DNA from: Escherichia coli
GTDB taxonomy: Bacteria > Pseudomonadota > Gammaproteobacteria > Enterobacterales > Enterobacteriaceae
Length of the DNA stretch: 64,000 bases
Assembly (NCBI RefSeq): GCF_002854065.1
Contig: NZ_CP024147.1
Strand: one strand, 5' to 3'
The translations under genes and the position numbers were made by a program. This document shows positions 2,158 to 45,965 of the stretch, piece after piece; position 1 is the first letter of the stretch, and every line of letters starts with the position of its first letter. The notes under the pieces are model-generated. The model saw only the letters and a program-made list of their open reading frames with translations. It made no database searches and had not been told where the DNA came from.

Positions 2158-2973
2158 TCAGCTGTTAAAAGGGGATGTGTTATCCAGTACAGCCTGAATC
2201 ACATTCAGCGCGCCTTCATGATTATTATCATCGGTAGCGTAACGGGCGATTTGTTTAATGTTTTCCGCAGCATTGCCCATCGCAAAGGAATAACGCGCCA
2301 TTTTCAGCATCTCCGCATCGTTACCGCTGTCGCCAATCGCTACCACATTTTGCGGTGACAGATCCCAGCGTTTCAGTAACCGCGAAATACCGTTTGCTTT
2401 ATGTAGACCGGGAATAATCAGGTCGATAAAGCCAAAACCACTGGTAACGGGTTTCATAATGCCATCCAGCGCTATGTGCAGTTTGTCGATCACTAACGGG
2501 ATTTGTTCATCCGGCAGGTTGAGCGAAAACTTGAACAGTACGTCGTCAATTTCCTGATAATCTTTTACAGGTTTCAGGCGATGGTAGTGTTTTGCCATTA
2601 GTGCGACGAATGCTTCGGGGGCATTTTCGCTGACATATGCACTTTGCAGACCGCAGGCGACAAAATTGAGTTGCTTATCTTTTAGCAACTCGCCAATAAC
2701 AATCCGCGATTCATGTCGGGTCAGTTCGCCGTGGAACAGTTGCTTGCCATGTTCGTAAACCAGTGCGCCGTTTTCCGCGACAAAAGAGATCTCATCCTTT
2801 AGCTCAGGAAAGAACGAAATAAGCTGGTAATACTGATTACCGCTGGCGACAACGAACTTGATGCCGCGCTTTTTCAGTTCCTGATATTGCGCCATAAAAC
2901 GTGGTTGGTTGTACGTTTTGGCGTCGTTAAGAAAAGTACCGTCCATGTCTGTGACGATAACTTTTACGCTCAT
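2158..2973 (-). CDS. ybiV: HAD-superfamily (Cof-type) sugar phosphatase
   Basis: 271 aa ORF with N-terminal DxDGT motif (VTDMDGTFL); matches remembered YbiV. Confidence 0.9.
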
Positions 2974-3043
2974 AGGTGTGCTCCTGGCTCGAAAATGAAA
3001 CCGTAACAGTGTAATAACAATGTGACGCAGAGCACAAATTATA

Positions 3044-3057
3044 TTTCGAATGAAAGT
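3044..3057. promoter_or_regulatory. 14-bp conserved motif copy 2 (TTTCGAATGAAAGT) upstream of ybiV
   Basis: Exact 14-mer shared with 6492..6505 and reverse-complement of 2022..2035. Confidence 0.45.
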
Positions 3058-3118
3058 GAGAGTGAAATTGATGGTGTGAATGATTTAGCCCGGCGACGTC
3101 TCCGCCGGGCTGAGGGGA

Positions 3119-5551
3119 TTACAGCATATGTTCGGTACGGGCGATGATATCGTCCTGAGCGTCTGGAGAGAGCGCGGTGAAGAAGGCGGAATAACCCGCG
3201 ACACGCACTACCAGATCGCGATACTGATCGGGATGTTTTTTCGCATCCAGCAGCGTTTCGCGGGAAACGATGTTGTACTGAATATGCCAGCCTTTATGCA
3301 CCTCGAAGAAGGTGCGCAGCAGGATCATCAGTTTCTGCTTGTCAGATTCGTTCTCCAGTGTGGCTGGATTCAGTTTCTGGTTGAGCAACACGCCGCCGAG
3401 AATCGCTGCCGTAGGCAGTTTACCCACCGAGCCAATGACCGCAGTAGGGCCAAGATGATCAGTACCGGAAGCCGGGCTTGCGCCTTCTGCCAGCGGGGTA
3501 TGCGCTTTACGTCCGTCCGGCGTTGCCATAGTCTGCGCGCCAAACGGTACGTTAGCGGAGATAGACGACGTACCCGCGTAATAGTTGCCGCCAACCGGAC
3601 CACGACCGTAGCGTGGGTTATGGTACTGTTTCAGTTCGTCGATATAGGTCTGATAAGCGCGAGCCAGCAGCGTATCGACAGTATCATCGTCGTTGCCGTA
3701 CTTCGGCGCACCGTTAATCAGCCGCTGACGCAGCTGCTCGTGAGTCAGGCCGTCGAAGTCATCTGCCAGTGCGGCAGCAAGCTGTTGCTGACCAATCGCG
3801 CCCTGTTCAAATACCAGTTTCTTCACGGCCGCCAGGCTGTTGCCGAGGTTGGCAATGCCAACCTGCAGGCCAGAAACCCAGTCATATTTCGCGCCGCCTT
3901 GCTTGATGCTTTTCGCTCGCTCAATACAGTCATCCACCAGCGCCGAGCAGAGAATATCGTGCACGTTCTCTTCCAGCATGGTGTCGACGACATATTCGAT
4001 TTCGATTGATTTACGCGTGTAGTAACGGATTTGCGTATCCCACGCGTCCATCACTTCATCGAAGTTGTTGAAGTTACCTGCCGACAACGCTTTTTCTTGT
4101 GGCAGGAACACTTTGCCGCTGGTGGCATCACGCCCGCCTTCCAGCGCCGCCAGCATCACGCGGGCGAAGTTGATAAAGCTCATGCCGGTACAGCGATAGC
4201 CCCATTTGCCACCGACGGCGGTTTCTATACAACCAATCGCTGCGTAGTCGTAAGCGTCCTGCGGTTCAATACCGAGTTTAATAAATTCCGGGATCACGAT
4301 TTCGTCGTTGTTGAACGCCGGCATCCCGAAGCCGCAGCGGATCACCTGCACACAGGCGTCGAGGAAATCGTTGCTCATTCCCGCGTGGTAGCGCACGCTG
4401 AGGTTAGGCTGAGTCGAACGCAGACGGCCGCAGGACTCAAGGATCGCGTAAGAGAGGGGATTCACCGCGTCCATTGGTTGACCATCAACCAGATTTTGTC
4501 CGCCAATGGTGACATTCTGATACAGAGGACTTCCCGCAGAGGCTTTCGAGTGCGAGCCGGAGCGGATTTTGTTCACTTCCAGCAATTTCAACCAGCAGCT
4601 ATGCAGCAATTCGATGGCGTGTTCGCGATCCAGCGTCTGTTTCAGTTCAACATCACGACGATAGTACGGGTAGAGATACTGGTCCATACGACCAAACGAT
4701 ACCGAGTGACCGTTAGATTCGATCTGCAATATCAACTGGATGAAGTAACACAGTTGCAGCGCCTGCCAGAAAGTCTGCGGCGGCTGGTGGGCGATGAGAT
4801 CGCAGTTTTCTGCTATCGCCAGCAGTTCATCGCGACGGCTTTCGCGGGTTTCGGTCGCGGCCATTTCACGCGCCAGGGCAGCGAAACGTTCAATATGTTC
4901 ACTGACTGCCACCAGCACGATATCAATCGCTTTCAGGAATTGCTCACCGTGTAAATCTTCCAGCACCGTCAGGTTGATGCGCGAGCGACGTTCCGCTACT
5001 TTCTCGCGCAGACCATCAAGCCCTTTTTCCAGCAGCAGCGGGAAATTGACCGCCAGGTGCGCATCGCCGGAGGTCATATTGCCTTCCGCTTTAATGATGC
5101 CGGTCGCCAGCAGACCTTTTTGCTCATCGGTAAACATGCCGTAGCAGCGATCCTGTACGGTCTGACCGCGCCACCACGGGCACACTTCATGCAGAACGCG
5201 TTTGTTCTCTTCGCTCACCGCAAAGCCAGCACCGGGACGATCTGCCAGATCATCAATCTCTTTTTCGATCCACGAGACGGTATATTCCGGGAAGATCGGC
5301 GCGGCGCGAACTTCGCTTGCCTGGTTGCCAATGATCAACTCATCGTGTTTGATCCAGATGGTGCGATTCGCCAGGTGATGTGCCAGCGCCAGCGCGCGTC
5401 GTACCGGGATCGGCTTATCGAGATGTTGTTGATACATCTCGGTATAGTGCTGCGCGCGCTCGGTACAAACCGGCGGTTTCACAATATGCACCAGCGCATT
5501 TTTGTGCGCTTTAATGCGGTCGCTGAGCGTGTCCAGTTTCAGTGTGGTCAT
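3119..5551 (-). CDS. ybiW: Glycyl-radical enzyme (pyruvate formate-lyase-like), PflF/YbiW
   Basis: 810 aa ORF with C-terminal glycyl radical motif RVAGYSA. Confidence 0.9.
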   Translation of the reverse strand: MTTLKLDTLSDRIKAHKNALVHIVKPPVCTERAQHYTEMYQQHLDKPIPVRRALALAHHLANRTIWIKHDELIIGNQASEVRAAPIFPEYTVSWIEKEIDDLADRPGAGFAVSEENKRVLHEVCPWWRGQTVQDRCYGMFTDEQKGLLATGIIKAEGNMTSGDAHLAVNFPLLLEKGLDGLREKVAERRSRINLTVLEDLHGEQFLKAIDIVLVAVSEHIERFAALAREMAATETRESRRDELLAIAENCDLIAHQPPQTFWQALQLCYFIQLILQIESNGHSVSFGRMDQYLYPYYRRDVELKQTLDREHAIELLHSCWLKLLEVNKIRSGSHSKASAGSPLYQNVTIGGQNLVDGQPMDAVNPLSYAILESCGRLRSTQPNLSVRYHAGMSNDFLDACVQVIRCGFGMPAFNNDEIVIPEFIKLGIEPQDAYDYAAIGCIETAVGGKWGYRCTGMSFINFARVMLAALEGGRDATSGKVFLPQEKALSAGNFNNFDEVMDAWDTQIRYYTRKSIEIEYVVDTMLEENVHDILCSALVDDCIERAKSIKQGGAKYDWVSGLQVGIANLGNSLAAVKKLVFEQGAIGQQQLAAALADDFDGLTHEQLRQRLINGAPKYGNDDDTVDTLLARAYQTYIDELKQYHNPRYGRGPVGGNYYAGTSSISANVPFGAQTMATPDGRKAHTPLAEGASPASGTDHLGPTAVIGSVGKLPTAAILGGVLLNQKLNPATLENESDKQKLMILLRTFFEVHKGWHIQYNIVSRETLLDAKKHPDQYRDLVVRVAGYSAFFTALSPDAQDDIIARTEHML

Positions 5552-7249: not shown

Positions 7250-7324
7250 CCGGACGTTCTGCATCCTCGTAAATTGCTGATGACGTGGCGGAGTGCCGCG
7301 TCTTATCAGGCCTGAAGGTGGCAA

Positions 7325-8074
7325 TTACTGCCCGCACACCTCACACCCCGGATTACTCATCAGTTTCATTTCGCGAAACTGACAGGTCATCGCATCGTAC
7401 ATGACGATTTTCCCGCTGGCCGGTTTACCATAACCTGCCAGCAGTTTGATCGCTTCCATTGCCTGCAATGAACCAATTACGCCGATCAACGGTGCCATCA
7501 CGCCTGCTTCTACGCAGGTTAACGCGTTCTCGCCAAACAAACGGCTAAGGCAGCGATAGCACGGTTCGCCGTCCTGATAAGTGAAGACCGTGATTTGACC
7601 TTCCATACGAATTGCCGCGCCGGAAACCAGCGGCACCTTCGCGGCAAAACAGCCTGCGTTCAGTTGATTACGTACCGCAACGTTATCCGTACAGTCGAGC
7701 ACCAGATCGTGTTCAGCAATCAATGCTGCAAGTTCTGCGTCATCCAGCAGTGCATTGACTGGCGTAATCGCGATATGTGGGTTGATCCGCGCCAGGGCGT
7801 CACGGGCGGATTCCACCTTCGGTTGCCCGACCGTAGCATCACTGTGCAGCGTCTGGCGTTGCAGATTCGAGAGCGAAACCGAGTCGAAGTCGAGCAGCGT
7901 CAGGTTGCCGACACCGGCGCTTGCCAGATACTGCGAAGCTGCGCAGCCGAGTCCACCGAGGCCGACTACCAGCACACGAGAATCTTTTAGCGCCTCCTGA
8001 CCGTCAAAATCAAAACCGCGCAGAATGATTTGCCGGTTGTAGCGCAGCATCTCCTGATCGCTGAGTTCCGCCAT
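7325..8074 (-). CDS. moeB: Molybdopterin-synthase adenylyltransferase
   Basis: 249 aa; ThiF/MoeB nucleotide-binding motif GLGGLG and C-terminal CxxC. Confidence 0.9.
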   Translation of the reverse strand: MAELSDQEMLRYNRQIILRGFDFDGQEALKDSRVLVVGLGGLGCAASQYLASAGVGNLTLLDFDSVSLSNLQRQTLHSDATVGQPKVESARDALARINPHIAITPVNALLDDAELAALIAEHDLVLDCTDNVAVRNQLNAGCFAAKVPLVSGAAIRMEGQITVFTYQDGEPCYRCLSRLFGENALTCVEAGVMAPLIGVIGSLQAMEAIKLLAGYGKPASGKIVMYDAMTCQFREMKLMSNPGCEVCGQ

Positions 8075-9309
8075 TACAGGCCTCCGAACAACGCGTTAAA
8101 CGGTTCTACTTCCACCCATTCGCCCACTTCCACATTGCCGCGATCGCGTTCCAGTACGATAAAGCAGTTGCCGAGGCTAAAGGAGCTAAATATATGTGAA
8201 CCCTGATGTCCGGTGGTCGTCACTTCCAGTTCGCCATCGGCGTTGCGGTGCAGCACGCCGCGCTGGAAATCAAGACGTCCTGGCGTTTTTTTCAGGCGGG
8301 ACGCTGTGCGTACGCGCTGGCGCGCGGGCAGGCCGCTGGCGGTGTTGCCGCTTAGTTTTGCCAGCAAAGGCTGTACCAGTTGATAGAAGGTCAGCGTCGC
8401 TGAAACCGGGTTGCCCGGCAGGCCGCAGAACCAGCTATTGCTGAGTTTACCGAACGCGAACGGTTTACCTGGTTTAATCGCTAGCTTCCAGAAGGCGATC
8501 TCCCCCAGCTCTTCAAGAATCGTTTTGGTGTAATCCGCTTCACCCACTGAAACACCGCCGGAACTGATCACCACATCCGCCTGGCTGTCGGCTTCAATAA
8601 ATGCGGCGCGCAGGGCATGGGGATCGTCGCGGATAATCCCTAAGTTGATTACCTCGCATCCCAACTGTTCTAACATCAGGTGTACGGCGAGACGGTTGGT
8701 ATCGTAGATTTGGCCGTCGCCCAGCGGCTGACCGGGCAACTGGAGTTCATCACCGGTAGAAAAAAGCGCTACACGCACTTTACGAATCACCGGAACTTCG
8801 GCAATCCCCAGTGAAGCAATTACTGGCAGCTCTGCGGTAGTCAGGCGAGTTCCCGCCGGGAAAACAACCGCACCTGCAGAGATATCTTCACCGCGACGGC
8901 GAATATTTTGCCCGCTACGCACTTCAGCAGTAAAACGCACGCCATTGTCCGTTTGTTCAGTCTGCTCCTGCATCACCACCGCTTCGCAGCCTTCCGGCAC
9001 CGGCGCACCGGTCATAATACGAATGCAGGTACCCGCAGGCCATTCACCATGGTATGGCTGACCGGCAAAGGATTTACCGGCAACGGGCAGCGGTTGCCCG
9101 GAGGCAATATCGGCTAAACGCACCGCGTAGCCGTCCATTGCGGAGTTATCAAACCCCGGAACATCAAGCGGCGAAACGACATCGCTCGCCAGAATACGAC
9201 CAAAACACTGTACCAGTGGCAGCGTTTCCTGGGCGGTCAGTGGGGTGACGCGAGAAAGCATCTCATTAAGCGCGGTGTCGAGCGACATCAATCCGGTGGT
9301 AAATTCCAT
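8074..9309 (-). CDS. moeA: Molybdopterin molybdenumtransferase
   Basis: 411 aa; overlaps moeB start by ATGA, consistent with moeAB operon. Confidence 0.9.
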
Positions 9310-9512
9310 GAAAACACTCCTGCGGAGGCAAAATCGAATTTGCCTATTATGTCAGAAAAACGCCACAGACTGTATGCCACCTCGGGCGTAGCGCTGGGTC
9401 CTGCCTTTACATGCCATATCCATCTTTCTATATTCAAAAATTGAATGAGTAATTCATAAAAATTCTGATATTTATAGCAAAAGTGGCGAGCCACCCTTAA
9501 TGGACGAATACT

Positions 9513-10478
9513 ATGGGCAAAGCAGTTATTGCAATTCATGGTGGCGCAGGTGCAATTAGCCGCGCGCAGATGAGTCTGCAACAGGAATTACGCTACATCG
9601 AGGCGTTGTCTGCCATTGTTGAAACCGGGCAGAAAATGCTGGAAGCGGGCGAAAGTGCGCTGGATGTGGTGACGGAAGCGGTGCGTCTGCTGGAAGAGTG
9701 TCCACTGTTTAACGCCGGAATTGGCGCTGTCTTTACGCGTGATGAGACCCATGAACTGGACGCCTGTGTGATGGATGGTAACACCCTGAAAGCCGGTGCG
9801 GTGGCGGGCGTTAGTCATCTGCGTAATCCGGTTCTTGCCGCCCGGCTGGTGATGGAGCAAAGCCCGCATGTGATGATGATTGGCGAAGGGGCAGAAAATT
9901 TTGCGTTTGCTCATGGCATGGAGCGCGTCTCGCCGGAGATTTTCTCCACGCCTTTGCGTTATGAACAACTACTGGCAGCGCGCGAGGAAGGGGCAACAGT
10001 CCTCGACCATAGCGGTGCGCCACTGGATGAAAAACAGAAAATGGGCACCGTAGGGGCCGTGGCGTTGGATTTAGACGGCAATCTGGCGGCAGCCACGTCC
10101 ACGGGCGGAATGACCAATAAATTACCCGGACGAGTTGGCGATAGTCCCTTAGTGGGGGCCGGATGCTACGCCAATAACGCCAGTGTGGCGGTTTCTTGTA
10201 CCGGCACGGGCGAAGTCTTCATCCGCGCGCTGGCGGCATATGACATCGCCGCGTTAATGGATTACGGCGGATTAAGTCTCGCGGAAGCCTGCGAGCGGGT
10301 AGTAATGGAAAAACTCCCTGCGCTTGGCGGTAGCGGTGGCTTAATCGCTATCGACCATGAAGGGAATGTCGCGCTACCGTTTAACACCGAAGGAATGTAT
10401 CGCGCCTGGGGCTACGCAGGCGATACGCCAACCACCGGTATCTACCGTGAAAAAGGGGACACCGTTGCCACACAGTGA
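9513..10478 (+). CDS. iaaA: Isoaspartyl dipeptidase / L-asparaginase family (Ntn hydrolase)
   Basis: 321 aa; GTVGAVALD autoproteolytic Thr motif. Confidence 0.9.
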
Positions 10479-12336
10479 TGAACTTGATGCCGGTAATGTG
10501 CTGGCGGTTGAAAATCTTAATATTGCCTTTATGCAGGACCAGCAGAAAATAGCTGCGGTCCGCAATCTCTCTTTTAGTCTGCAACGCGGTGAGACGCTGG
10601 CAATTGTTGGCGAATCCGGCTCCGGTAAGTCAGTGACTGCGCTGGCATTGATGCGTCTGTTGGAACAGGCGGGCGGTTTAGTACAGTGCGATAAAATGCT
10701 GTTGCGGCGGCGCAGTCGTGATGTGATTGAACTTAGCGAGCAGAGCGCTGCACAAATGCGCCATGTGCGCGGTGCGGATATGGCGATGATATTTCAGGAG
10801 CCGATGACATCGCTGAACCCGGTATTTTCTGTGGGTGAACAGATTGCCGAATCAATTCGTCTGCATCAGAACGCCAGTCGTGAAGAAGCGATGGTCGAGG
10901 CGAAGCGGATGCTGGATCAGGTACGCATTCCGGAGGCACAAACCATTCTTTCACGTTATCCGCATCAACTCTCTGGCGGGATGCGCCAGCGAGTGATGAT
11001 TGCGATGGCGCTGTCATGCCGCCCGGCGGTGCTGATAGCCGATGAGCCAACCACCGCGCTGGATGTCACTATTCAGGCGCAGATCCTGCAATTAATCAAA
11101 GTATTGCAAAAAGAGATGTCGATGGGCGTTATCTTTATCACTCACGATATGGGCGTGGTGGCAGAGATTGCCGATCGGGTACTGGTGATGTATCAGGGCG
11201 AGGCGGTGGAAACGGGTACCGTCGAACAGATTTTTCATGCACCGCAACATCCTTACACCCGTGCGCTGTTAGCTGCTGTTCCGCAACTTGGTGTGATGAA
11301 AGGGTTAGATTATCCCCGACGTTTCTCATTGATATCGCTTGAACATCCAGCGAAACAGGAACCCCCCATCGAGCAGAAAACGGTGGTGGATGGCGAACCT
11401 GTTTTACGGGTGCGTAATCTGGTCACCCGTTTCCCTTTGCGCAGCGGTTTGTTGAATCGCGTAACGCGGGAAGTGCATGCCGTTGAGAAAGTCAGTTTTG
11501 ATCTCTGGCCTGGCGAAACGCTATCGCTGGTGGGCGAGTCTGGCAGCGGTAAATCCACTACCGGGCGGGCGTTGCTGCGCCTGGTCGAATCGCAGGGCGG
11601 CGAAATTATCTTTAACGGTCAGCGAATCGATACCTTGTCACCCGGCAAACTTCAGGCATTACGCCGCGATATTCAGTTTATTTTTCAGGACCCTTACGCT
11701 TCGCTGGACCCACGTCAGACCATCGGTGATTCGATTATCGAACCGCTGCGTGTACACGGTTTATTGCCAGGTAAAGACGCGGCTGCACGCGTTGCGTGGT
11801 TGCTGGAGCGCGTGGGCCTGTTACCTGAACATGCCTGGCGTTACCCGCATGAGTTTTCCGGCGGTCAGCGCCAGCGCATCTGCATTGCTCGCGCGTTGGC
11901 ATTGAATCCAAAAGTGATCATTGCCGACGAAGCCGTTTCGGCGCTGGATGTTTCAATTCGCGGGCAGATTATCAACTTGTTGCTCGATCTCCAGCGTGAT
12001 TTCGGCATTGCGTATCTGTTTATCTCCCACGATATGGCTGTGGTAGAGCGGATTAGTCATCGTGTGGCGGTGATGTATCTCGGGCAAATTGTTGAAATTG
12101 GTCCACGGCGCGCGGTCTTCGAAAACCCGCAGCATCCTTATACGCGTAAATTACTGGCGGCAGTTCCGGTCGCTGAACCGTCCCGACAACGACCGCAGCG
12201 TGTACTGCTGTCGGACGATCTTCCCAGCAATATTCATCTGCGTGGCGAAGAGGTGGCAGCCGTCTCGTTGCAATGCGTCGGGCCGGGGCATTACGTCGCA
12301 CAACCACAATCAGAATACGCATTCATGCGTAGATAA
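10465..12336 (+). CDS. gsiA: Glutathione ABC importer ATP-binding protein (double ATPase)
   Basis: Two Walker A motifs (GESGSGKS twice) and two LSGG signatures; start placed at TTG 10465 (MPHSDELD) overlapping iaaA end. Confidence 0.85.
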
Positions 12337-12355
12337 CATTCAGGCGGAGAATAAA

Positions 12356-13894
12356 ATGGCAAGAGCTGTACACCGTAGTGGGTTAGTGGCGCTGGGCATT
12401 GCGACAGCGTTGATGGCATCTTGTGCATTCGCTGCCAAAGATGTGGTGGTGGCGGTAGGATCGAATTTCACCACGCTCGATCCGTATGACGCGAATGACA
12501 CGTTATCTCAGGCCGTAGCGAAATCGTTTTACCAGGGGCTGTTCGGTCTGGATAAAGAGATGAAACTGAAAAACGTGCTGGCGGAGAGTTATACCGTTTC
12601 CGATGACGGCATTACTTACACCGTGAAATTGCGGGAAGGAATTAAATTCCAGGATGGCACCGATTTCAACGCCGCGGCGGTGAAAGCGAATCTGGACCGG
12701 GCCAGCGATCCGGCGAATCATCTTAAACGCTATAACCTGTATAAGAATATTGCCAAAACGGAAGCGATCGATCCGACAACGGTAAAGATTACCCTCAAAC
12801 AGCCGTTCTCAGCGTTTATTAATATTCTTGCCCATCCGGCGACCGCGATGATTTCACCGGCAGCGCTGGAAAAATATGGCAAGGAGATTGGTTTTCATCC
12901 GGTGGGAACCGGACCGTATGAACTGGATACCTGGAATCAGACCGATTTTGTGAAGGTGAAAAAATTCGCGGGTTACTGGCAGTCAGGATTGCCCAAACTG
13001 GACAGCATAACCTGGCGTCCGGTGGCGGATAACAACACCCGCGCGGCAATGCTGCAAACCGGTGAAGCGCAGTTTGCTTTCCCCATTCCTTACGAGCAGG
13101 CCGCACTGCTGGAGAAAAACAAAAATATCGAGTTGATGGCCAGTCCGTCAATTATGCAGCGTTATATCAGTATGAACGTGACGCAAAAGCCATTCGATAA
13201 CCCGAAGGTCCGTGAGGCGCTGAATTACGCCATTAACCGCCCGGCGCTGGTGAAAGTGGCCTTCGCGGGCTATGCAACGCCAGCTACTGGTGTGGTACCG
13301 CCGAGTATCGCCTACGCGCAAAGTTATAAACCGTGGCCTTACGATCCAGTGAAAGCGCGCGAATTACTGAAAGAGGCGGGATATCCCAACGGTTTCAGTA
13401 CCACGCTGTGGTCGTCACATAACCACAGCACCGCGCAGAAAGTGCTGCAATTTACCCAGCAGCAGTTAGCGCAGGTCGGGATTAAAGCCCAGGTGACTGC
13501 GATGGATGCCGGACAGCGGGCGGCAGAAGTTGAAGGTAAAGGGCAAAAAGAGAGCGGCGTGCGGATGTTCTACACTGGCTGGTCGGCTTCAACCGGCGAA
13601 GCGGACTGGGCGCTATCGCCACTGTTCGCCTCGCAAAACTGGCCACCGATGCTGTTTAATACCGCATTTTACAGCAATAAACAGGTGGATGACTTCCTGG
13701 CTCAGGCACTGAAAACGAATGATCCGGCGGAAAAGACCCGCTTGTATAAGGCGGCGCAGGATATCATCTGGCAAGAGTCGCCGTGGATCCCGCTGGTGGT
13801 AGAAAAACTGGTGTCGGCACACAGTAAAAACCTGACCGGTTTTTGGATCATGCCAGACACCGGCTTCAGCTTTGAAGACGCGGATTTGCAATAA
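12356..13894 (+). CDS. gsiB: Glutathione-binding periplasmic protein
   Basis: ATG 12356 with signal peptide [26 protein letters not shown]; family 5 SBP. Confidence 0.9.
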
Positions 13895-13911
13895 GCAACG
13901 CAGGGAGTGGA

Positions 13912-14832
13912 ATGCTTAATTACGTTATCAAACGCTTACTGGGGTTGATTCCAACGCTGTTTATCGTCTCGGTGCTGGTGTTTTTATTTGTGCATATGCT
14001 GCCCGGCGATCCGGCGCGATTGATTGCCGGGCCCGAAGCTGATGCGCAGGTTATAGAACTGGTGCGTCAGCAGCTGGGGTTGGATCAGCCGCTGTATCAC
14101 CAGTTCTGGCACTATATCAGCAATGCTGTGCAGGGGGATTTTGGCCTGTCGATGGTGTCGCGTCGTCCGGTTGCCGATGAGATTGCCAGCCGCTTTATGC
14201 CAACGCTGTGGCTGACCATAACCAGTATGGTCTGGGCGGTGATATTTGGTATGGCGGCGGGAATTATCGCCGCCGTCTGGCGTAACCGTTGGCCGGATCG
14301 ATTGAGTATGACCATTGCGGTGTCGGGGATCTCGTTTCCGGCATTTGCGCTGGGGATGCTTTTAATTCAGGTATTCTCCGTTGAACTGGGCTGGCTGCCT
14401 ACCGTGGGAGCAGACAGTTGGCAGCACTACATTTTACCCTCCCTGACGCTCGGCGCGGCAGTGGCCGCCGTGATGGCGCGCTTTACCCGCGCGTCGTTTG
14501 TCGACGTTTTAAGCGAAGATTATATGCGTACCGCGAGGGCGAAAGGGGTAAGCGAAACCTGGGTTGTCCTCAAACACGGGCTACGCAACGCGATGATCCC
14601 GGTAGTGACCATGATGGGCTTACAGTTTGGCTTTTTGCTCGGTGGTTCTATCGTGGTGGAGAAAGTTTTCAACTGGCCCGGACTTGGACGCTTACTCGTT
14701 GACTCCGTAGAAATGCGCGATTACCCGGTGATTCAGGCGGAAATTCTGCTTTTCTCGCTGGAATTTATTCTTATCAACTTAGTGGTGGATGTGCTTTACG
14801 CCGCCATTAACCCGGCTATCAGGTACAAGTAA
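13912..14832 (+). CDS. gsiC: Glutathione ABC transporter permease
   Basis: 306 aa polytopic membrane protein, DppB-like. Confidence 0.9.
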
Positions 14833-14834
14833 GG

Positions 14835-15746
14835 ATGCGACTATTTAACTGGCGACGTCAGGCGGTGTTAAACGCCATGCCACTGGTCAAACCTGACCAG
14901 GTACGTACACCGTGGCATGAATTCTGGCGACGATTTCGCCGTCAGCATATGGCGATGACCGCCGCATTATTCGTTATTTTATTGATTGTGGTGGCCATTT
15001 TTGCACGCTGGATCGCTCCCTATGACGCCGAAAATTATTTTGATTATGACAATCTGAATAACGGACCTTCTTTGCAGCACTGGTTTGGCGTCGATTCACT
15101 GGGGCGCGACATTTTCAGCCGTGTCCTGGTTGGTGCGCAAATCTCGCTGGCGGCGGGCGTGTTTGCCGTGTTTATCGGTGCGGCGATAGGGACGTTGCTG
15201 GGCTTGTTGGCTGGATATTATGAAGGCTGGTGGGATCGGCTGATCATGCGCATTTGCGATGTGCTGTTTGCCTTCCCGGGTATTTTACTGGCGATCGCTG
15301 TTGTTGCGGTGTTGGGAAGCGGCATTGCTAACGTGATTATTGCAGTCGCCATTTTTTCCATCCCTGCGTTTGCCCGCCTGGTGCGCGGCAACACGCTGGT
15401 GTTGAAACAGCAAACCTTTATTGAGTCAGCACGCAGTATTGGTGCTAGCGATATGACCATTTTGTTGCGTCATATCCTGCCTGGGACCGTCTCTTCTATC
15501 GTGGTGTTTTTCACCATGCGCATTGGTACCTCGATTATCTCTGCCGCCAGCCTGTCATTTCTCGGCCTCGGTGCGCAGCCGCCGACACCAGAGTGGGGAG
15601 CAATGCTCAATGAGGCTCGAGCGGATATGGTTATCGCGCCGCATGTCGCTGTTTTTCCGGCCCTGGCTATTTTTCTGACTGTACTGGCGTTCAATTTGTT
15701 GGGCGATGGTTTACGCGATGCGCTGGATCCGAAAATTAAAGGATAG
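14835..15746 (+). CDS. gsiD: Glutathione ABC transporter permease
   Basis: 303 aa DppC-like permease. Confidence 0.9.
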
Positions 15747-15923
15747 TTACGTTTGAATATTACTTGAAAGAGTAATCACCTCACAGGAAATTATTGCCCT
15801 AAGCAAGTGTTGTAACTTTCTGCTGATTTTGTAGAATCGGGTAATTTGGTTAAAAAGCCGCAGCAAGGGACTGTTTTTGCAGCGGCACAGCGTTCAGACA
15901 GTTATTTTGTTAAATGTATTAAC

Positions 15924-18272
15924 ATGCTGAGTTTATACGAAAAGATAAAGATAAGGCTGATAATTTTATTTTTATTGGCAGCACTGTCATTTATTGGCCT
16001 TTTTTTCATCATTAACTATCAACTGGTATCGGAACGCGCGGTAAAACGTGCCGATAGCCGCTTTGAACTTATTCAGAAAAACGTCGGCTATTTCTTTAAA
16101 GATATTGAACGTTCGGCCCTGACATTAAAGGACTCACTGTATTTATTAAAAAATACAGAGGAGATTCAACGCGCTGTGATCCTGAAAATGGAAATGATGC
16201 CATTTTTAGACTCGGTGGGACTGGTACTTGATGATAATAAATATTATCTCTTTTCGCGGAGGGCGAACGATAAAATCGTTGTTTATCATCAGGAACAAGT
16301 AAATGGACCGCTTGTCGACGAGTCAGGGCGGGTTATTTTTGCCGATTTTAACCCATCGAAACGACCGTGGTCGGTGGCTTCAGATGACTCTAACAACAGC
16401 TGGAATCCGGCATACAATTGCTTTGATCGTCCGGGTAAAAAATGTATCTCTTTTACGCTACGCATCAACGGCAAAGATCACGATTTGTTAGCGGTGGATA
16501 AAATTCATGTCGATTTAAACTGGCGATATCTGAACGAGTATCTTGATCAAATCAGCGCTAATGATGAAGTTCTATTTTTGAAACAAGGCCATGAGATCAT
16601 TGCCAAGAATCAACTCGCTCGTGAAAAACTGATTATTTATAATAGCGAAGGTAATTATAATATTATTGATTCTGTCGATACTGAATATATCGAAAAAACA
16701 TCAGCGGTGCCAAATAACGCATTATTCGAAATCTATTTTTATTATCCGGGCGGTAATTTATTGAACGCATCAGATAAACTTTTTTATCTGCCGTTTGCGT
16801 TCATTATTATCGTATTGCTGGTGGTTTATTTAATGACCACTCGTGTGTTCCGTCGGCAATTTTCTGAAATGACAGAGCTGGTTAATACGCTGGCGTTTTT
16901 GCCTGACTCAACGGATCAGATCGAGGCTCTGAAAATTCGCGAAGGCGATGCGAAAGAGATTATCAGCATCAAAAATTCGATCGCGGAAATGAAAGATGCC
17001 GAAATTGAACGGTCAAATAAATTGCTCTCACTGATCTCTTACGATCAGGAAAGTGGTTTTATTAAAAATATGGCGATTATTGAGTCCAACAATAATCAGT
17101 ATCTGGCTGTGGGGATCATCAAACTGTGTGGTCTGGAAGCCGTGGAAGCTGTGTTTGGTGTTGATGAACGCAATAAAATCGTCAGGAAATTGTGTCAGCG
17201 AATTGCTGAGAAATATGCACAATGCTGCGATATCGTGACATTCAATGCCGATCTCTATTTACTTCTGTGTCGGGAAAATGTACAGACATTTACCCGTAAA
17301 ATAGCGATGGTAAACGATTTTGACAGCAGCTTTGGCTACCGCAATCTGCGCATCCATAAGTCTGCCATTTGTGAACCTTTGCAGGGGGAAAACGCCTGGA
17401 GTTACGCAGAAAAACTGAAACTGGCGATTTCCAGTATCCGTGACCATATGTTCTCCGAGTTTATTTTCTGTGATGACGCGAAACTCAACGAAATAGAAGA
17501 GAATATCTGGATTGCGCGTAATATTCGCCATGCAATGGAAATTGGCGAACTATTCCTCGTCTATCAACCGATCGTTGATATTAACACCCGCGCCATTCTG
17601 GGCGCGGAGGCGTTGTGCCGTTGGGTGTCTGCGGAGCGGGGGATCATTTCACCGCTGAAGTTCATTACCATTGCTGAAGATATCGGGTTTATCAATGAGC
17701 TGGGTTATCAGATTATTAAAACGGCAATGGGTGAATTCAGACATTTTAGTCAGCGTGCATCGCTGAAGGATGATTTCTTACTGCATATTAATGTTTCGCC
17801 CTGGCAGTTAAACGAACCGCACTTTCATGAGCGTTTTACCACCATCATGAAAGAAAATGGCCTGAAGGCGAACAGCCTCTGTGTTGAGATCACTGAAACC
17901 GTGATCGAGCGAATTAATGAACATTTTTATCTCAATATTGAACAACTGCGTAAACAAGGGGTACGGATATCGATTGATGACTTTGGCACCGGTTTGTCAA
18001 ACCTGAAACGTTTTTATGAAATTAATCCAGACAGCATAAAGGTGGACTCGCAATTTACCGGCGATATTTTCGGTACTGCGGGAAAAATTGTGCGCATTAT
18101 TTTCGATCTGGCACGCTATAACCGGATCCCGGTGATTGCGGAAGGCGTAGAGAGCGAAGACGTTGCGCGTGAATTAATCAAATTAGGATGTGTTCAGGCT
18201 CAGGGGTATCTGTACCAGAAACCCATGCCATTCTCCGCCTGGGATAAAAGTGGAAAATTAGTAAAAGAGTAG
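15924..18272 (+). CDS. pdeI: c-di-GMP phosphodiesterase (EAL domain) PdeI/YliE
   Basis: Membrane-anchored protein with EAL motif (GAEALCRW); start chosen at MLSLYEK; AT-rich gene. Confidence 0.85.
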
Positions 18273-18279
18273 TTTACGT

Positions 18280-19608
18280 ATGTCCAGAATCAATAAGTTC
18301 GTACTTACAGTCAGTCTGCTGATTTTTATCATGATTTCAGCAGTTGCCTGCGGGATCTACACTCAAATGGTAAAGGAACGGGTGTATAGCCTGAAACAGT
18401 CCGTTATTGATACTGCTTTTGCGGTGGCAAATATTGCTGAATATCGGCGTAGCGTGACAATTGATCTTATCAACACGCTAAATCCCACGGAGGAACAGCT
18501 GTTGGTTGGCTTACGCACAGCTTACGCCGACTCGGTTTCACCCTCTTATTTGTACGATGTCGGTCCTTATCTGATTTCCAGTGACGAATGTATTCAGGTA
18601 AAGGAGTTCGAGAAAAATTATTGTGCAGATATTATGCAGGTTGTGAAGTATCGACATGTCAAAAATACAGGGTTTATCTCTTTTGACGGTAAAACCTTCG
18701 TCTATTACCTCTATCCGGTAACTCACAATCGTAGTCTGATATTTTTGCTTGGTCTGGAGCGTTTTTCTTTACTGTCAAAATCGCTGGCGATGGACAGCGA
18801 GAACCTGATGTTCTCTCTGTTTAAGAACGGTAAACCGGTGACCGGTGATGAATATAATGCTAAAAACGCCATCTTCACCGTTTCGGAAGCGATGGAGCAC
18901 TTCGCCTATTTGCCGACCGGATTGTACGTATTTTCGTATAAAAAAGATGTTTATTTGCGGGTTTGTACATTGATTATTTTCTTTGCCGCATTGGTGGCAG
19001 TGATATCGGGTGCCAGTTGCCTCTATCTGGTACGCAGAGTGATTAATCGTGGTATTGCGGAGAAAGAAGCCATTATTAATAACCATTTTGAACGCGTACT
19101 GGATGGCGGGCTTTTCTTTTCGGCTGCCGATGTCAAAAAACTCTACAGTATGTATAACTCGGCGTTCCTGGACGACCTGACCAAAGCAATGGGTAGAAAA
19201 TCCTTTGACGAAGATTTAAAAGCGCTGCCGGAAAAAGGCGGTTATTTGTGCCTGTTTGACGTCGATAAATTCAAAAATATTAACGACACCTTCGGTCATT
19301 TGCTGGGCGATGAAGTGTTGATGAAAGTGGTGAAAATCCTTAAATCACAGATCCCGGTAGATAAAGGTAAAGTCTACCGCTTCGGCGGTGACGAATTTGC
19401 GGTGATTTATACGGGTGGAACGCTGGAGGAGTTGCTATCGATTCTAAAAGAAATCGTTCATTTCCAGGTGGGAAGCATTAATTTAAGCACCAGTATCGGT
19501 GTAGCGCATTCAAATGAATGTACTACCGTCGAACGCTTGAAAATGCTGGCGGATGAGCGGCTGTATAAGAGTAAGAAAAACGGCAGGGCTCAGATTAGCT
19601 GGCAGTAG
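18280..19608 (+). CDS. dgcI: Diguanylate cyclase (GGDEF domain) DgcI/YliF
   Basis: 442 aa; GGDEF motif RFGGDEFAV present. Confidence 0.85.
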
Positions 19609-19623
19609 AATTAGAATAGTGTT

Positions 19624-19647
19624 AGTACCCCTGAATCAAGGGGTACT
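19624..19647. terminator. Bidirectional terminator hairpin between convergent dgcI and antitoxin gene
   Basis: agtacccct-gaatca-aggggtact perfect stem. Confidence 0.5.
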
Positions 19648-19677
19648 AATGAATGTGGTAAATCATTTGCAAACATT

Positions 19678-20007
19678 TTACTTTGCAAAAACTTCCGGCC
19701 CTTTTATTGCCAATGTATTCAAAATACGTAGTGCCGGGCCGCTCGGTTTTATTTCATTACGTTCCCATTTCGAGACACTTTCTTTTGACATTCCCATTGT
19801 ATGTGCCAGCACGGATTGTGACATGCCGTATCGGGTGCGGATGGCTTTGATCTCTTCACCCGTCATTGATTTGACTTTGGCTATACGGGCGCTGACTTCA
19901 CGGGCTTTGACCATGACGGCAATGGCATCAACCTCACTATCAGACATCAGGCCCAGTGCATTCAGTTCCTTTGCATCTTCCAGCATCATTTGTAATTTAT
20001 CGCTCAT
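19678..20007 (-). CDS. HTH (XRE-like) antitoxin candidate, HigA2-like
   Basis: 109 aa; C-terminal motif WERNEIKPSGPALRILNTLA resembles the WExGxRxPxGxAxxLL signature of HigA2-type antitoxins; overlaps upstream gene by 11 nt. Confidence 0.6.
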   Translation of the reverse strand: MSDKLQMMLEDAKELNALGLMSDSEVDAIAVMVKAREVSARIAKVKSMTGEEIKAIRTRYGMSQSVLAHTMGMSKESVSKWERNEIKPSGPALRILNTLAIKGPEVFAK

Positions 20008-20383
20008 TTTTCACCTCAATCAAAAAGCCGGTTTCGATCAAATCCTTTATTTGCTTATTGCTAAAGGCCAGAAATGCATTTGCCATTTTTTTGTAGGCCG
20101 CCAGTTCATCATCTTCGATTTCTTTGGTTCCTTTACTGCTTAGACCACTCTTGGACCAACCATCATAAAAAAACACATGATTTGCTGATTTAAAAAAGAT
20201 AATTGTTCTGGCTCCACCACTCTTTCCTTGTTGGAGGGGTAACCGTTTTTTGATGACACCGCTACCTAAATCAGCCTCCCATATGCCTTGCATCACTTCT
20301 TCAGCGGCAGCCATGAGAACTTTATCGTGAATACCAAGTTTTTTCGTGCTTTGGCTGAATCGCCTTTCCTTATACACACCCAT
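19997..20383 (-). CDS. RelE/HigB2-like toxin candidate
   Basis: 128 aa; motif GKSGGARTIIFF resembles HigB-2 family GxxxGGxRxIxY/F; ATG with AAGGA SD; upstream of and overlapping the antitoxin. Confidence 0.55.
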   Translation of the reverse strand: MGVYKERRFSQSTKKLGIHDKVLMAAAEEVMQGIWEADLGSGVIKKRLPLQQGKSGGARTIIFFKSANHVFFYDGWSKSGLSSKGTKEIEDDELAAYKKMANAFLAFSNKQIKDLIETGFLIEVKNER

Positions 20384-20398
20384 ACATCCATCCTTGTG

Positions 20399-20424
20399 GT
20401 AATGTTTACTATAGTAAGCATTAC
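20399..20424. promoter_or_regulatory. Near-perfect 26-bp palindrome (24/26) upstream of toxin start; candidate TA operator
   Basis: gtaatgtttactatagtaagcattac lies 16-41 bp upstream of the toxin ATG. Confidence 0.45.
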
Positions 20425-20435
20425 GCTTATTTCAA
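20408..20435 (-). promoter_or_regulatory. Candidate sigma70 promoter of TA operon (-35 TTGAAA, 16-bp spacer, -10 TATAGT)
   Basis: Hexamers read on minus strand; -10 lies inside the palindrome. Confidence 0.4.
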
Positions 20436-20608
20436 GTAATTGCGATCAAAACTTTAATTTGGTGTGAAAAAGTGAGAGTTGCCTCGAGTACGATTCATTT
20501 TTCTCGATTTATGCGTCAGGGGATTTTGTGCGTAAGGGTAGGACATCGGGAAGGGTAGTATAGGCAGATCGAAGAACAATATCCTTGTTAGATCTGCCTT
20601 TAGATTAA

Positions 20609-34811: not shown

Positions 34812-35099
34812 ATGCGCGCGATCGGTAAATTGCCTAAGAGCGTGTTGATACTGGAATTTATCGGAATGATGTTGCTGGCGGTGGCGCTGCTGTCGGTAAG
34901 CGACTCCCTGTCGCTGCCTGAGCCATTTTCTCGGCCAGAAGTGCAGATTCTGATGATTTTTCTCGGTGTTTTGCTCATGCTTCCCGCTGCGGTGGTGGTT
35001 ATTCTTCAGGTGGCAAAACGTCTTGCCCCACAGCTGATGAACCGTCCACCGCAATATTCACGTTCAGAAAGAGAAAAAGATAATGACGCCAACCATTGA
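34812..35099 (+). CDS. ybjC: Small membrane protein YbjC
   Basis: 95 aa; overlaps nfsA start, consistent with ybjC-nfsA-rimK-ybjN operon. Confidence 0.75.
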   Translation: MRAIGKLPKSVLILEFIGMMLLAVALLSVSDSLSLPEPFSRPEVQILMIFLGVLLMLPAAVVVILQVAKRLAPQLMNRPPQYSRSEREKDNDANH

Positions 35100-35805
35100 A
35101 CTTATTTGTGGCCATCGCTCCATTCGCCATTTCACTGATGAACCCATTTCCGAGGCGCAGCGTGAGGCGATTATTAACAGCGCCCGTGCGACGTCCAGTT
35201 CCAGTTTTTTGCAGTGTAGTAGCATTATTCGCATTACCGACAAAGCATTACGTGAAGAGCTGGTGACGCTGACCGGCGGGCAAAAACACGTAGCGCAAGC
35301 GGCGGAGTTCTGGGTGTTCTGTGCCGACTTTAACCGCCATTTACAGATCTGTCCGGATGCTCAGCTCGGCCTGGCGGAACAGCTGTTGCTCGGTGTCGTT
35401 GATACGGCAATGATGGCGCAGAATGCATTAACCGCAGCGGAATCGCTGGGATTGGGCGGCGTATATATCGGCGGCCTGCGCAATAATATTGAAGCGGTGA
35501 CGAAACTGCTGAAATTACCGCAGCATGTTCTGCCGCTGTTTGGGCTGTGCCTTGGCTGGCCTGCGGATAATCCGGATCTCAAGCCGCGTTTACCGGCCTC
35601 CATTTTGGTGCATGAAAACAGCTATCAACCGCTGGATAAAGACGCACTGGCGCAGTATGACGAGCAACTGGCGGAATATTACCTCACCCGTGGCAGCAAT
35701 AATCGCCGGGATACCTGGAGCGATCATATCCGCCGAACAATCATTAAAGAAAGCCGCCCATTTATTCTGGATTATTTGCACAAACAGGGTTGGGCGACGC
35801 GCTAA
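35083..35805 (+). CDS. nfsA: Oxygen-insensitive NADPH nitroreductase
   Basis: 240 aa; matches remembered NfsA N-terminus MTPTIELICGHRSIRHFTDEP. Confidence 0.9.
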   Translation: MTPTIELICGHRSIRHFTDEPISEAQREAIINSARATSSSSFLQCSSIIRITDKALREELVTLTGGQKHVAQAAEFWVFCADFNRHLQICPDAQLGLAEQLLLGVVDTAMMAQNALTAAESLGLGGVYIGGLRNNIEAVTKLLKLPQHVLPLFGLCLGWPADNPDLKPRLPASILVHENSYQPLDKDALAQYDEQLAEYYLTRGSNNRRDTWSDHIRRTIIKESRPFILDYLHKQGWATR

Positions 35806-42416: not shown

Positions 42417-43544
42417 ATGCAGTGCGCACTTTACGACGCGGGTCGCTGTCGTTCCTGTCAGTGGATAACGCAGCCGATTCCAGAGCAACTCTCCGCTAAA
42501 ACCGCCGATCTTAAAAATCTGCTCGCCGATTTTCCGGTTGAGGAATGGTGCGCGCCGGTGTCAGGCCCAGAACAAGGGTTTCGTAATAAAGCCAAAATGG
42601 TGGTGAGTGGTAGCGTTGAAAAACCCCTGCTCGGTATGCTGCATCGCGACGGCACACCGGAAGACCTTTGTGACTGCCCGCTTTATCCTGCCTCATTTGC
42701 GCCCGTTTTTGCGGCGCTAAAACCGTTTATCGCCCGAGCGGGGTTAACGCCCTACAACGTGGCGCGTAAGCGTGGCGAACTGAAATACATTCTGCTGACC
42801 GAAAGCCAGAGCGATGGCGGCATGATGCTGCGCTTTGTACTGCGTTCTGATACCAAGCTGGCGCAACTGCGTAAGGCGCTGCCGTGGTTACACGAACAAC
42901 TACCGCAGCTGAAAGTTATTACCGTCAATATTCAGCCGGTACATATGGCGATTATGGAAGGGGAGACGGAGATCTACCTGACCGAACAACAGGCGCTGGC
43001 AGAGCGTTTTAACGATGTGCCGCTGTGGATCCGTCCGCAAAGTTTCTTCCAGACTAATCCGGCGGTCGCCAGCCAGCTGTACGCTACCGCGCGCGACTGG
43101 GTACGACAGCTGCCGGTTAAACATATGTGGGATCTGTTCTGCGGTGTGGGGGGCTTTGGTTTACACTGCGCGACGCCTGACATGCAGTTAACCGGGATCG
43201 AAATTGCGCCAGAGGCCATTGCCTGTGCAAAGCAGTCAGCTGCTGAACTGGGCTTAACGCGTTTGCAATTTCAGGCGCTGGACTCCACTCAGTTTGCCAC
43301 CGCTCAGGGGGAGGTGCCGGAGCTGGTGCTGGTTAACCCGCCGCGCCGCGGCATTGGTAAACCGCTGTGTGATTATCTCTCAACGATGGCACCGCGTTTT
43401 ATCATCTACTCCAGCTGTAACGCCCAAACTATGGCGAAAGATATCCGAGAACTGCCTGGTTATCGCATTGAACGGGTGCAGCTTTTCGATATGTTCCCTC
43501 ACACCGCGCATTATGAAGTGTTGACGCTGCTGGTAAAAATGTAA
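42417..43544 (+). CDS. rlmC: 23S rRNA (uracil747-C5)-methyltransferase
   Basis: 375 aa; N-terminal Cys cluster and SAM-MTase domain. Confidence 0.9.
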
Positions 43545-43597
43545 ATACATCATTCAAATCAATATCACCTCGGCATACATCCATCCAAAATAATAAT

Positions 43598-43634
43598 CGT
43601 GATCGATCGATTAATAATAACCGATCGATCACGG
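43598..43634. promoter_or_regulatory. 12-bp-arm perfect palindrome containing four GATC sites (terminator and/or operator)
   Basis: cgtgatcgatcg-attaataataac-cgatcgatcacg downstream of rlmC, upstream of PTS operon. Confidence 0.4.
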
Positions 43635-44104
43635 TTATATATTGCTCTATTTTTGCAAATCAAATCACAAATAATCAAATAAGATCTTTAATTGAACTGT
43701 TTTGATTACTACAGTGCACTTACCGAATACATACAGAGGCATTGCTTAGCGAAACACAAAATTTCCTGAGACATTATTAACGTCAGCAGAAGGTTCATGC
43801 ATTGACAACGGAAATGTACGCTTATGGAGGGCGTTCCGACGATGTTTGCCAAATTCATAGATGTTATTCAAACGTTTTTAACTGAACCGGCAATTTTAAT
43901 TGGTTTGCTGGTGGGTATTGGTTATGCCCTTGATAAGAAATCGCCAATAAAAATTATTACCGGCATGGTCAGCGCCATGGTGGGATTAATGATGGTGTTA
44001 TTTGGTGGTTTCCAGTTTTCCGCAACATTTAAACCGGTAGCAGAAGCCGGGTGATGCTGCCAACTTACTGATTTAGTGTATGATGGTGTTTTTGAGGTGC
44101 TCCA

Positions 44105-44380
44105 GTGGCTTCTGTTTCTATCAGCTGTCCCTCCTGTTCAGCTACTGACGGGGTGGTGCGTAACGGCAAAAGCACTGCCGGACATCAGCGCTATCTCTGC
44201 TCTCACTGCCGTAAAACATGGCAACTGCAGTTCACTTACACCGCTTCTCAACCCGGTACGCACCAGAAAATCATTGATATGGCCATGAATGGCGTTGGAT
44301 GCCGGGCAACCGCCCGCATTATGGGCGTTGGCCTCAACACGATTTTCCGCCATTTAAAAAACTCAGGCCGCAGTCGGTAA
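44105..44380 (+). CDS. insA: IS1 InsA
   Basis: 91 aa with CxxC zinc finger; part of IS1. Confidence 0.9.
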
Positions 44381-44802
44381 CCTCGCGCATACAGCCGGGC
44401 AGTGACGTCATCGTCTGCGCGGAAATGGACGAACAGTGGGGATACGTCGGGGCTAAATCGCGCCAGCGCTGGCTGTTTTACGCGTATGACAGGCTCCGGA
44501 AGACGGTTGTTGCGCACGTATTCGGTGAACGCACTATGGCGACGCTGGGGCGTCTTATGAGCCTGCTGTCACCCTTTGACGTGGTGATATGGATGACGGA
44601 TGGCTGGCCGCTGTATGAATCCCGCCTGAAGGGAAAGCTGCACGTAATCAGCAAGCGATATACGCAGCGAATTGAGCGGCATAACCTGAATCTGAGGCAG
44701 CACCTGGCACGGCTGGGACGGAAGTCGCTGTCGTTCTCAAAATCGGTGGAGCTGCATGACAAAGTCATCGGGCATTATCTGAACATAAAACACTATCAAT
44801 AA
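44299..44802 (+). CDS. insB: IS1 InsB (transposase catalytic portion, expressed as InsAB by -1 frameshift)
   Basis: 167 aa ORF; A6C slippery motif TTAAAAAAC at 44354-44362. Confidence 0.9.
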
Positions 44803-45965
44803 GTTGGAGTCATTACCCAGAAGCCGTAAGTAAAGCCTATGGTGTTCACGGATATTTAATGGATTCCTACGCAATGAAAGCGGCAACGCAAATTGCATTG
44901 GGGGATAATTTTGGTTATGTCGGGTATGTATTTGTACTGGCGTTTTTTACCAACCTGCTGCTGGTATTATTTGGTCGGTATACTGGTGCCAAAGGGATAT
45001 TTTTGACAGGGAATACCGGTGTTTCACATTCTCAGGCGGTATTATGGTTGATTGTCTTTTGGCTGGGTTTTAGCTGGACTACATCCATTATTATTGCCGG
45101 AATATTAACGGGTGTATTCTGGGCGTTCTTCACCACGCTCATTGTTAAGCCCATTGCCAAAGTTACCAAAGATGCCGGTTTTACCATTGCTCATAACCAG
45201 ATGTTGGGATTGTGGTTTTTCTCCAAATTCGCCCATAAATTTGGTGACCCTGAAAAGCACGATGCTGAAAACCTGAAACTTCCCGGGTGGCTGGCGATTT
45301 TTAACCATAACGTAACGGCTATCGCCATTGTGATGACGCTGTTTGTCGGTGGTTTCTTGCTATCAACGGGTATCGATAATGTCCAGTTAATGGCGAAAGG
45401 CAAGCCCTGGTACATCTATATCATCAACCTTGGCTTACAGTTCTCCATGTATATGGTCATTCTGCTGCAGGGTGTGCGCATGATGGTGGGCGAAATTAAC
45501 GGTTCGTTTAAAGGCTGGCAAGATCGCTTTATTCCTAACGCTATTCCTGCTGTCGATGTTGCAGCGCTGTTACCTTTTTCACCCAATGCCACAACGTTAG
45601 GCTTCGTCTTCTGTACTTTTGGCACCATTTTTTCGATGGGGATCTTATTACTGGTTCACAGCCCAATTATGGTATTGCCTGGCTTTGTACCTCTGTTTTT
45701 CTCTGGCGGTCCAATTGGCGTATTAGCAAACCGCATGGGCGGATACCGTTCCGTAATTATCTGTACGTTCTTGCTGGGTATTATTCAGACCTTTGGTACG
45801 GTGTGGGCTATTCCGTTAACCGGGCTTGCTGAAAATGGCGTCGGCTGGACAGGAATATTTGACTGGGCAACCGTATGGCCTGCTATTTGTGAAGTTCTGA
45901 AATTTATCGCTGCAACATTCCATCTTGGTCCTTACGCGGGTTAATTAAATATTAAGGGTTTAAAA

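Follow-up and report, generated by a model that had tools for sequence, protein, structure and literature searches.

The gsiA gene of Escherichia coli starts at a known TTG codon inside iaaA, and the overlap may have come from loss of an iaaA stop codon

An already known, non-AUG start codon opens gsiA within the last codons of the gene upstream, iaaA, in the 64,000-nt stretch of Escherichia coli DNA that was analysed (the window). Taken as a whole, we hold with high confidence that gsiA is translated from the UUG at 10465 into a product beginning MPHSDELD; its overlap with iaaA is probably secondary to the loss of an iaaA stop codon. The start is annotated and experimentally supported, an ordinary feature that was correctly read. 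Every testable property of a genuine non-AUG initiation site is found at this TTG, and there is no new kind of element or mechanism at the iaaA-gsiA junction. Our additions to what was known are a cross-species demonstration of the start codon and a proposed stop-loss origin of the overlap.

The N-terminus MPHSDELD is read directly from the sequence: after the TTG, the gsiA frame continues with CCA CAC AGT GAT GAA CTT GAT and runs for 623 codons to TAA 12334-12336. This frame is +2 relative to that of iaaA, which ends in ATC TAC CGT GAA AAA GGG GAC ACC GTT GCC ACA CAG TGA with its stop at 10476-10478, and the two genes share the 14 nt listed in Table 1. The first-pass annotation had placed the start at this TTG, inside iaaA and with this overlap, which is exact in the sequence and agrees with RefSeq and with published initiation data. 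It had also called the TTG the only in-frame start giving the MPHSDELD terminus; this is true by definition, and circular, but the gsiA frame is already open from 10345 and has five more in-frame ATG, GTG or TTG codons near its 5′ end. TTG starts are unusual, not exceptional, in the reference strain (1 of the 58 annotated genes of this region). Elsewhere in the window, ybjC (34812-35099) and nfsA (35083-35805), both on the + strand, overlap by 17 nt (35083-35099), and thus overlaps of the size seen at gsiA are not exceptional either.

Table 1. Features of the iaaA-gsiA junction in window coordinates, with the predicted Shine-Dalgarno pairing and spacing of each candidate gsiA start
Feature	Position	Strand	Pairing (kcal/mol)	Spacing (nt)	Basis or remark
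iaaA CDS (isoaspartyl dipeptidase / EcAIII proenzyme, 321 aa)	9513..10478	+			ORF list; RefSeq in the identical strain and in K-12
ATG, in-frame gsiA start codon	10357		-1.5
ATG, in-frame gsiA start codon	10366		-4.8	0
GTG, in-frame gsiA start codon	10447		-3.0
iaaA codon 314, AAA (Lys)	10452..10454	+			TAA stop here in many other Enterobacteriaceae (junction alignment, iaaA stop positions)
gsiA Shine-Dalgarno, AAGGGG	10453..10458	+			Within iaaA codons 314-316; 6 nt before the TTG
gsiA TTG initiation codon	10465..10467	+	-7.8	6	Annotation; K-12 TetRP site at the homologous base; start codon in 26/26 loci
Two-frame overlap, 14 nt	10465..10478	+			gsiA codons 1-5 (fifth in part); iaaA codons 318-321 and stop
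gsiA CDS, 623 aa, ABC ATPase with two nucleotide-binding domains	10465..12336	+			ORF frame; stop TAA
GTG (Val12), 2006 annotated start (612-aa version), now an internal codon	10498..10500	+	-3.0	2	TetRP, Shine-Dalgarno, codon variation
ATG, in-frame gsiA start codon	10531		+1.9

The same start is annotated in other strains. Over positions 10200-10800 the window is 100% identical to E. coli 2013C-4991 and shows at least 97.5% identity to all but one of 5426 complete E. coli genomes. In RefSeq, iaaA and gsiA occupy 2314..3279 and 3266..5137 in 2013C-4991 (locus L001 of our set), and 866568..867533 (b0828) and 867520..869391 (b0829, NP_415350.2) in K-12 MG1655, with the same TTG and the same 14-nt overlap in both strains.

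Upstream of the TTG, the AAGGGG sequence pairs with the 3′ end of 16S rRNA at -7.8 kcal/mol, with a spacing of 6 nt. Among all positions of 9600-12300 this value ranks within the top 2.6%, and it is the best for any of the six candidate gsiA starts; the motif is kept across genera as AAGGGG or AAGGAG (AAGGRG). Folding of 10405-10525 in search of an RNA structure masking the start gave -36.8 kcal/mol with z = -1.26, which is not significant. Scans of 9250-16100 for an internal promoter or a terminator between iaaA and gsiA stayed at chance level (6 promoter-like sites vs 6.7 expected, and 9 terminator-like sites vs 8.4 expected). The ATG of iaaA itself (9513) has a weak Shine-Dalgarno pairing of -3.0 kcal/mol, compared with the -7.8 of the gsiA site that lies inside iaaA; should this difference count, ribosome recruitment may be better at the downstream ATPase gene than at the gene that opens the operon.

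How would ribosomes come to use such a start? Most likely, the UUG is used on an iaaA-gsiABCD polycistronic mRNA through ordinary Shine-Dalgarno-directed initiation at a weak start codon. The AAGGGG, which in the other frame codes for IaaA residues 314-316, would position the 30S subunit, and the initiator tRNA would read the UUG as formyl-methionine. We infer that initiation is mainly Shine-Dalgarno-driven and that gsiA translation is independent of the ribosomes terminating on iaaA, although ribosomes that reach the end of iaaA, 11 nt further on, may contribute some re-initiation or prevent the site from folding. The UUG probably holds expression of the ATPase at a modest level.

An alternative that we consider unlikely, though the likeliest of the rivals, is that use of the TTG depends on translational coupling, which the first-pass annotation had taken the overlap to suggest. 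Ribosomes ending at the iaaA TGA would then step back about 11 nt and re-initiate, and GsiA output would be tied to that of IaaA. This would suit two co-directional, overlapping genes whose junction is tight across Enterobacteriaceae (-17 to +13 nt), and a weak UUG could profit from a high local ribosome concentration. The published rules on spacing, however, point the other way. Coupling has been reviewed as working best at -4 to +3 nt and as suffering more from a growing overlap than from growing spacing, with a synthetic series showing no coupling at -25 nt (PMC12548453), and the -14 nt of iaaA-gsiA falls in the range where efficiency declines. In native E. coli pairs the dependence on distance is steep, spacings of -8 to +10 nt being predictive of re-initiation and the +10/11 class likely to initiate independently (Huber et al., PMC10666635); iaaA and gsiA are co-directional, but their overlap lies outside the -8 to about +10 nt range. 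Many relatives have the +10/+11 spacing, which by the same study would make their initiation likely independent. Moreover, gsiA is served by its own strong Shine-Dalgarno, and the local RNA shows no significant structure that would have to be melted. Pausing on the iaaA stop would place a ribosome over the TTG, which at high iaaA translation could even inhibit gsiA initiation. Judging from the spacing rules, the Shine-Dalgarno and the z value, coupling between iaaA and gsiA is possible, probably partial and probably not required.

The initiation sites of K-12 have been mapped by tetracycline-inhibited ribosome profiling (TetRP; Nakahigashi et al. 2016, DNA Res 23:193, PMC4909307). In that study, row 8 of Table S2 (ECK0819 yliA, that is, gsiA) reports a new initiation site at 866743 (U00096.2) with the codon TTG, shifted by -33 nt, i.e. 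upstream, from the start annotated in 2006. TetRP depth in the three samples was 46.3/140.5/70.6 at the TTG versus 0/0/3.0 at the 2006 GTG, no second candidate site is given for yliA, and in Table S3 the TetRP start coincides with that of the 2014 re-annotation (867520..869391, U00096.3). The search covered 60 nt around the old start, and within it the TTG was picked rather than GTG 10447; a distance of 8-11 nt separates the peak from the stop of iaaA, where terminating iaaA ribosomes could in principle contribute to the signal. Ribosome profiling had been proposed by the first-pass annotation as a check on the start, and these published data agree with the TTG. No N-terminal peptide of GsiA was found: the TetRP table (PMC4909307) has no entry for yliA under ‘N-peptide found’, the entries listed in the TRAINSPOTTER tables include the IaaA N-terminus and not that of GsiA, and Giess 2017 and the 2024 riboproteogenomics paper are without a gsiA entry. 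The N-terminal tryptic peptide expected from the TTG start is a long one.

The 2006 start of K-12 (U00096.2) corresponds to GTG 10498 in the window (867553 in NC_000913.3), and a 612-aa GsiA beginning there with (M/V)LAVENL, alone or alongside the TTG product, is the second alternative, one that we regard as very improbable. It has in its favour that it was the annotated start in U00096.2, that the ABC domains of solved homologues align only from GsiA residue 12-13 or so, and that the GTG is kept in 17 of 26 relatives. Since the conserved ABC fold does not include the first 11 residues, which form a short extension, protein homology alone cannot separate the TTG from GTG 10498. The TetRP depths do separate them, and the Shine-Dalgarno of the GTG is both weak and badly placed (Table 1).

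The comparison across species bears on the same choice. A scan of one genome per species yielded 80 loci with GsiA relatives, from Enterobacterales to Burkholderiales, most of them with iaaA immediately upstream, and starts were compared in the 26 non-redundant Enterobacterales loci with alignable N-termini. At the codon homologous to 10465 we found ATG in nine loci, GTG in nine and TTG in eight, that is, a start codon in all 26 and never a non-start synonym; the TTG group comprises Escherichia, E. albertii, three Citrobacter, Superficieibacter and Pseudocitrobacter. The Val12 codon, which served as a control, reads GTG in 17 loci, GTA in five, GTT in three and GTC in one. It is therefore not a start codon in 9 of the 26, among them an Escherichia species and two Citrobacter. 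Because an ordinary Leu, Val or Met position would be expected to show non-start synonyms too, as Val12 does, the codon at 10465 is held as a start. The residues directly following it, PHS(D/E)EL, lie upstream of Val12 and are conserved as protein, which again speaks against GTG 10498, while translation of the gsiA frame before the start is not conserved. In Pseudocitrobacter, an upstream stop and the ABC domain leave room for a single start candidate, the TTG, and the 14-nt overlap stretch is invariant between Escherichia and Citrobacter.

Longer forms of GsiA starting further upstream in iaaA, at ATG 10357, ATG 10366 or GTG 10447 (up to 659 aa, overlap of at most 122 nt), can be set aside almost entirely: an ORF listing mechanically yields the 659-aa frame from ATG 10357, but their Shine-Dalgarno sequences are poor or misplaced (Table 1), the codons are missing in E. 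albertii, another Escherichia species or Citrobacter, TetRP chose the TTG over GTG 10447, and nine loci, including Lelliottia, Enterobacter, Siccibacter, Cedecea and Mixta, carry an in-frame stop 3-12 codons before the conserved start, which excludes longer forms there.

A start at a downstream ATG, named in the first-pass annotation as the finding that would overturn its reading, is contradicted by the data. The ATG at codon 23 (10531; 867586 in NC_000913.3) was considered and rejected: it has no Shine-Dalgarno (Table 1), a protein initiated there would lack the ABC domain's first strand, and the codon is poorly conserved, being missing from Citrobacter and most other genera.

How did the start of gsiA come to lie inside iaaA? 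Loss of the stop codon in the upstream gene is a general model for the origin of short gene overlaps. In eight sampled loci (Leclercia, Lelliottia, Enterobacter MGH24, Phytobacter, Superficieibacter, Pseudocitrobacter, Siccibacter and one MAG) iaaA ends in GAA TAA GGRG, its stop overlaps the gsiA Shine-Dalgarno, and gsiA begins 9-11 nt later; a TAA stop within the Shine-Dalgarno, usually at +10/+11, is the arrangement of most Enterobacteriaceae genera in the sample. In Escherichia and Citrobacter the motif reads GAA AAA GGRG, and IaaA runs for 8 codons more (KGDTVATQ) to a TGA inside gsiA. Elsewhere, the iaaA stop is found at -1 (TGATG or TAATG; Pluralibacter, Cedecea and Enterobacter Ag1/R1), at -4 (ATGA; Rahnella) or at -8. 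The junction thus changes easily, over the whole range of -17 to +13 nt, while the gsiA start stays fixed.

It seems to us somewhat more probable than its opposite that the overlap is derived, a change of TAA to AAA in the iaaA of Escherichia and Citrobacter having moved the junction from +10/11 to -14, where the direction of the change follows from parsimony over a limited number of genera, with Salmonella, Klebsiella and Shigella outside the set of loci. Such a change would have given IaaA a dispensable tail of 8 residues, might have altered the IaaA:GsiA ratio, and would offer a small natural test case for the effect of stop-codon position on coupling. The IaaA of Salmonella is, we take it, 313 aa long. 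The PDB entries for the E. coli IaaA enzyme match residues 1-321, and one of them gives the beta chain as residues 179-315 only, a hint that the C-terminal tail is not structural.

Within E. coli, 5207 of 5425 complete genomes share the 40-nt junction (10446-10485) without a difference, and both variant strains inspected retain the gsiA Shine-Dalgarno and the TTG. In one of them, 23CRST011 (locus L085), the C homologous to window position 10473 is a T, which is silent in gsiA (His3, CAC to CAT) and turns iaaA codon 321 from CAG into TAG; IaaA is then 320 aa long and the overlap is 11 nt. This variant is in line with selection for the frame of gsiA and not for the tail of IaaA. If the stop-loss reading is true, it placed terminating ribosomes on the gsiA start, and the IaaA:GsiA ratio may have changed. 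The variation of the junction (+13 to -17 nt between genera, 11 versus 14 nt within E. coli, and ATG, GTG or TTG at a fixed site) makes a modest natural series in which stop-start geometry and start-codon identity could be set against operon expression.

The protein encoded from the TTG is 98.7-99.4% identical to annotated GsiA, and 98.7% identical to K-12 GsiA over 623 aa; its two ABC domains match the structures of DppD/OppD/OppF and Rv1281c. A solved GsiA structure was sought for its N-terminus, and only homologues were found. By its sequence, the gene of the window is the ortholog of K-12 b0829 and encodes the ATPase of the GsiABCD ABC importer, whose role in glutathione transport is taken from the literature (PMC11719327). 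The genes follow one another as iaaA, gsiA (-14 nt), gsiB (+19), gsiC (+17) and gsiD (+2), an order and spacing that fit a shared iaaA-gsiABCD transcript, as the literature also indicates. The operon is probably CysB-regulated, with sulfur limitation as a candidate inducing condition. The original paper on yliABCD is reportedly that of Suzuki et al. in 2005. The correct start sets GsiA at 623 rather than 612 aa, which is relevant to cloning, tagging and proteomics of the glutathione importer. Beyond annotation, the TTG start matters little. The first-pass annotation recovered a non-ATG, overlapping start from raw sequence.

The surroundings of the locus are those of an ordinary E. coli core region, from ybiT to macB, and the window is collinear with 2013C-4991 only over about 7294-19607. 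At the left limit of this segment, fsa and moeB, which are convergent, are separated by a spacer (about 7250-7296) some 100 bp shorter than in 2013C-4991, where a REP-type element may account for the difference. At its right limit, between dgcI and rimO, the window carries extra DNA relative to that strain (19608-20603), a toxin-antitoxin-like islet with two genes on the minus strand (19678-20383). One encodes an HTH protein of 109 aa whose matches to MqsA/HigA-type antitoxins stay below threshold; the other, a 128-aa ORF overlapping the first by 11 nt, is a RelE/ParE family toxin in the RefSeq annotation of matching strains. Of 5426 complete E. coli genomes, about 1128 have the islet in this place.

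Further along the window, IS1 is present in three identical copies of about 769 nt, at 44050-44818 (+), 46338-47106 (-) and 54662-55432 (+), and their 167-aa ORFs match NF033558 (IS1 family transposase). The first two interrupt an accessory islet between rlmC and artJ (43535-48599) that is absent from 2013C-4991 and intact, without IS1, in other E. coli. It comprises a PTS ascorbate-family IIC gene (44859-45944) that aligns only from profile position 87 of 447, IS1 having cut off its 5′ end; a IIB gene at 45966-46286; and, directly against the second IS1, a sulfatase-like gene (about 47093-48556). The complete E. coli genomes of the collection cover at most 71% of 43400-48700 and none has this rlmC-artJ IS1 arrangement; the insertions are therefore specific to the source strain. 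Next to ybjP, another segment that is extra compared with 2013C-4991 (53287-56241; about 1129 genomes) holds what other annotations call a pentapeptide repeat-containing protein gene, which is probably interrupted, the third IS1 directly following. Three IS1 copies in 64 kb suggest an IS1-rich lineage, and one could speculate that it is Shigella-like.

How does the junction compare with known systems? Its closest counterpart is gsiA of K-12 MG1655 (yliA, b0829; U00096.3 / NC_000913.3 867520..869391), with the same codon, overlap and N-terminus and no difference at the junction; the approximately 1.3% of residues that differ lie further along the protein. More broadly, gsiA belongs with the E. 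coli genes that TetRP and the 2014 re-annotation moved to a non-AUG start, being itself row 8 of the table in which they are listed together with, for instance, ybeZ, also TTG (PMC4909307, Table S2). As in that set, the TTG differs from the 2006 start, its TetRP peak is clear, and yliA has no signal at the old position. The difference is that the gsiA start lies inside the upstream gene with terminating ribosomes nearby, a type of confounding that the authors flag for ymdC and surE but not for gsiA.

The likeness to termination-reinitiation pairs of the ATGA or TGATG type (Huber et al. 2019, 2023) consists in co-directional genes with the downstream start placed before the upstream stop, and relatives of the iaaA-gsiA junction do show the classic TGATG/TAATG and ATGA forms. 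In contrast, the 14-nt overlap of E. coli is outside the enriched -8, -4 and -1 classes, and the two products, an ATPase and a peptidase, are not known as subunits of one complex. Finally, the junction differs from a plain case of the stop-loss model in that the direction of change comes from limited genera and that one E. coli strain has already acquired a new TAG that leaves an overlap of 11 nt. It resembles the model in that a single T-to-A difference, TAA versus AAA, separates a +10/+11 spacing from a 14-nt overlap and gives IaaA its 8 further residues.
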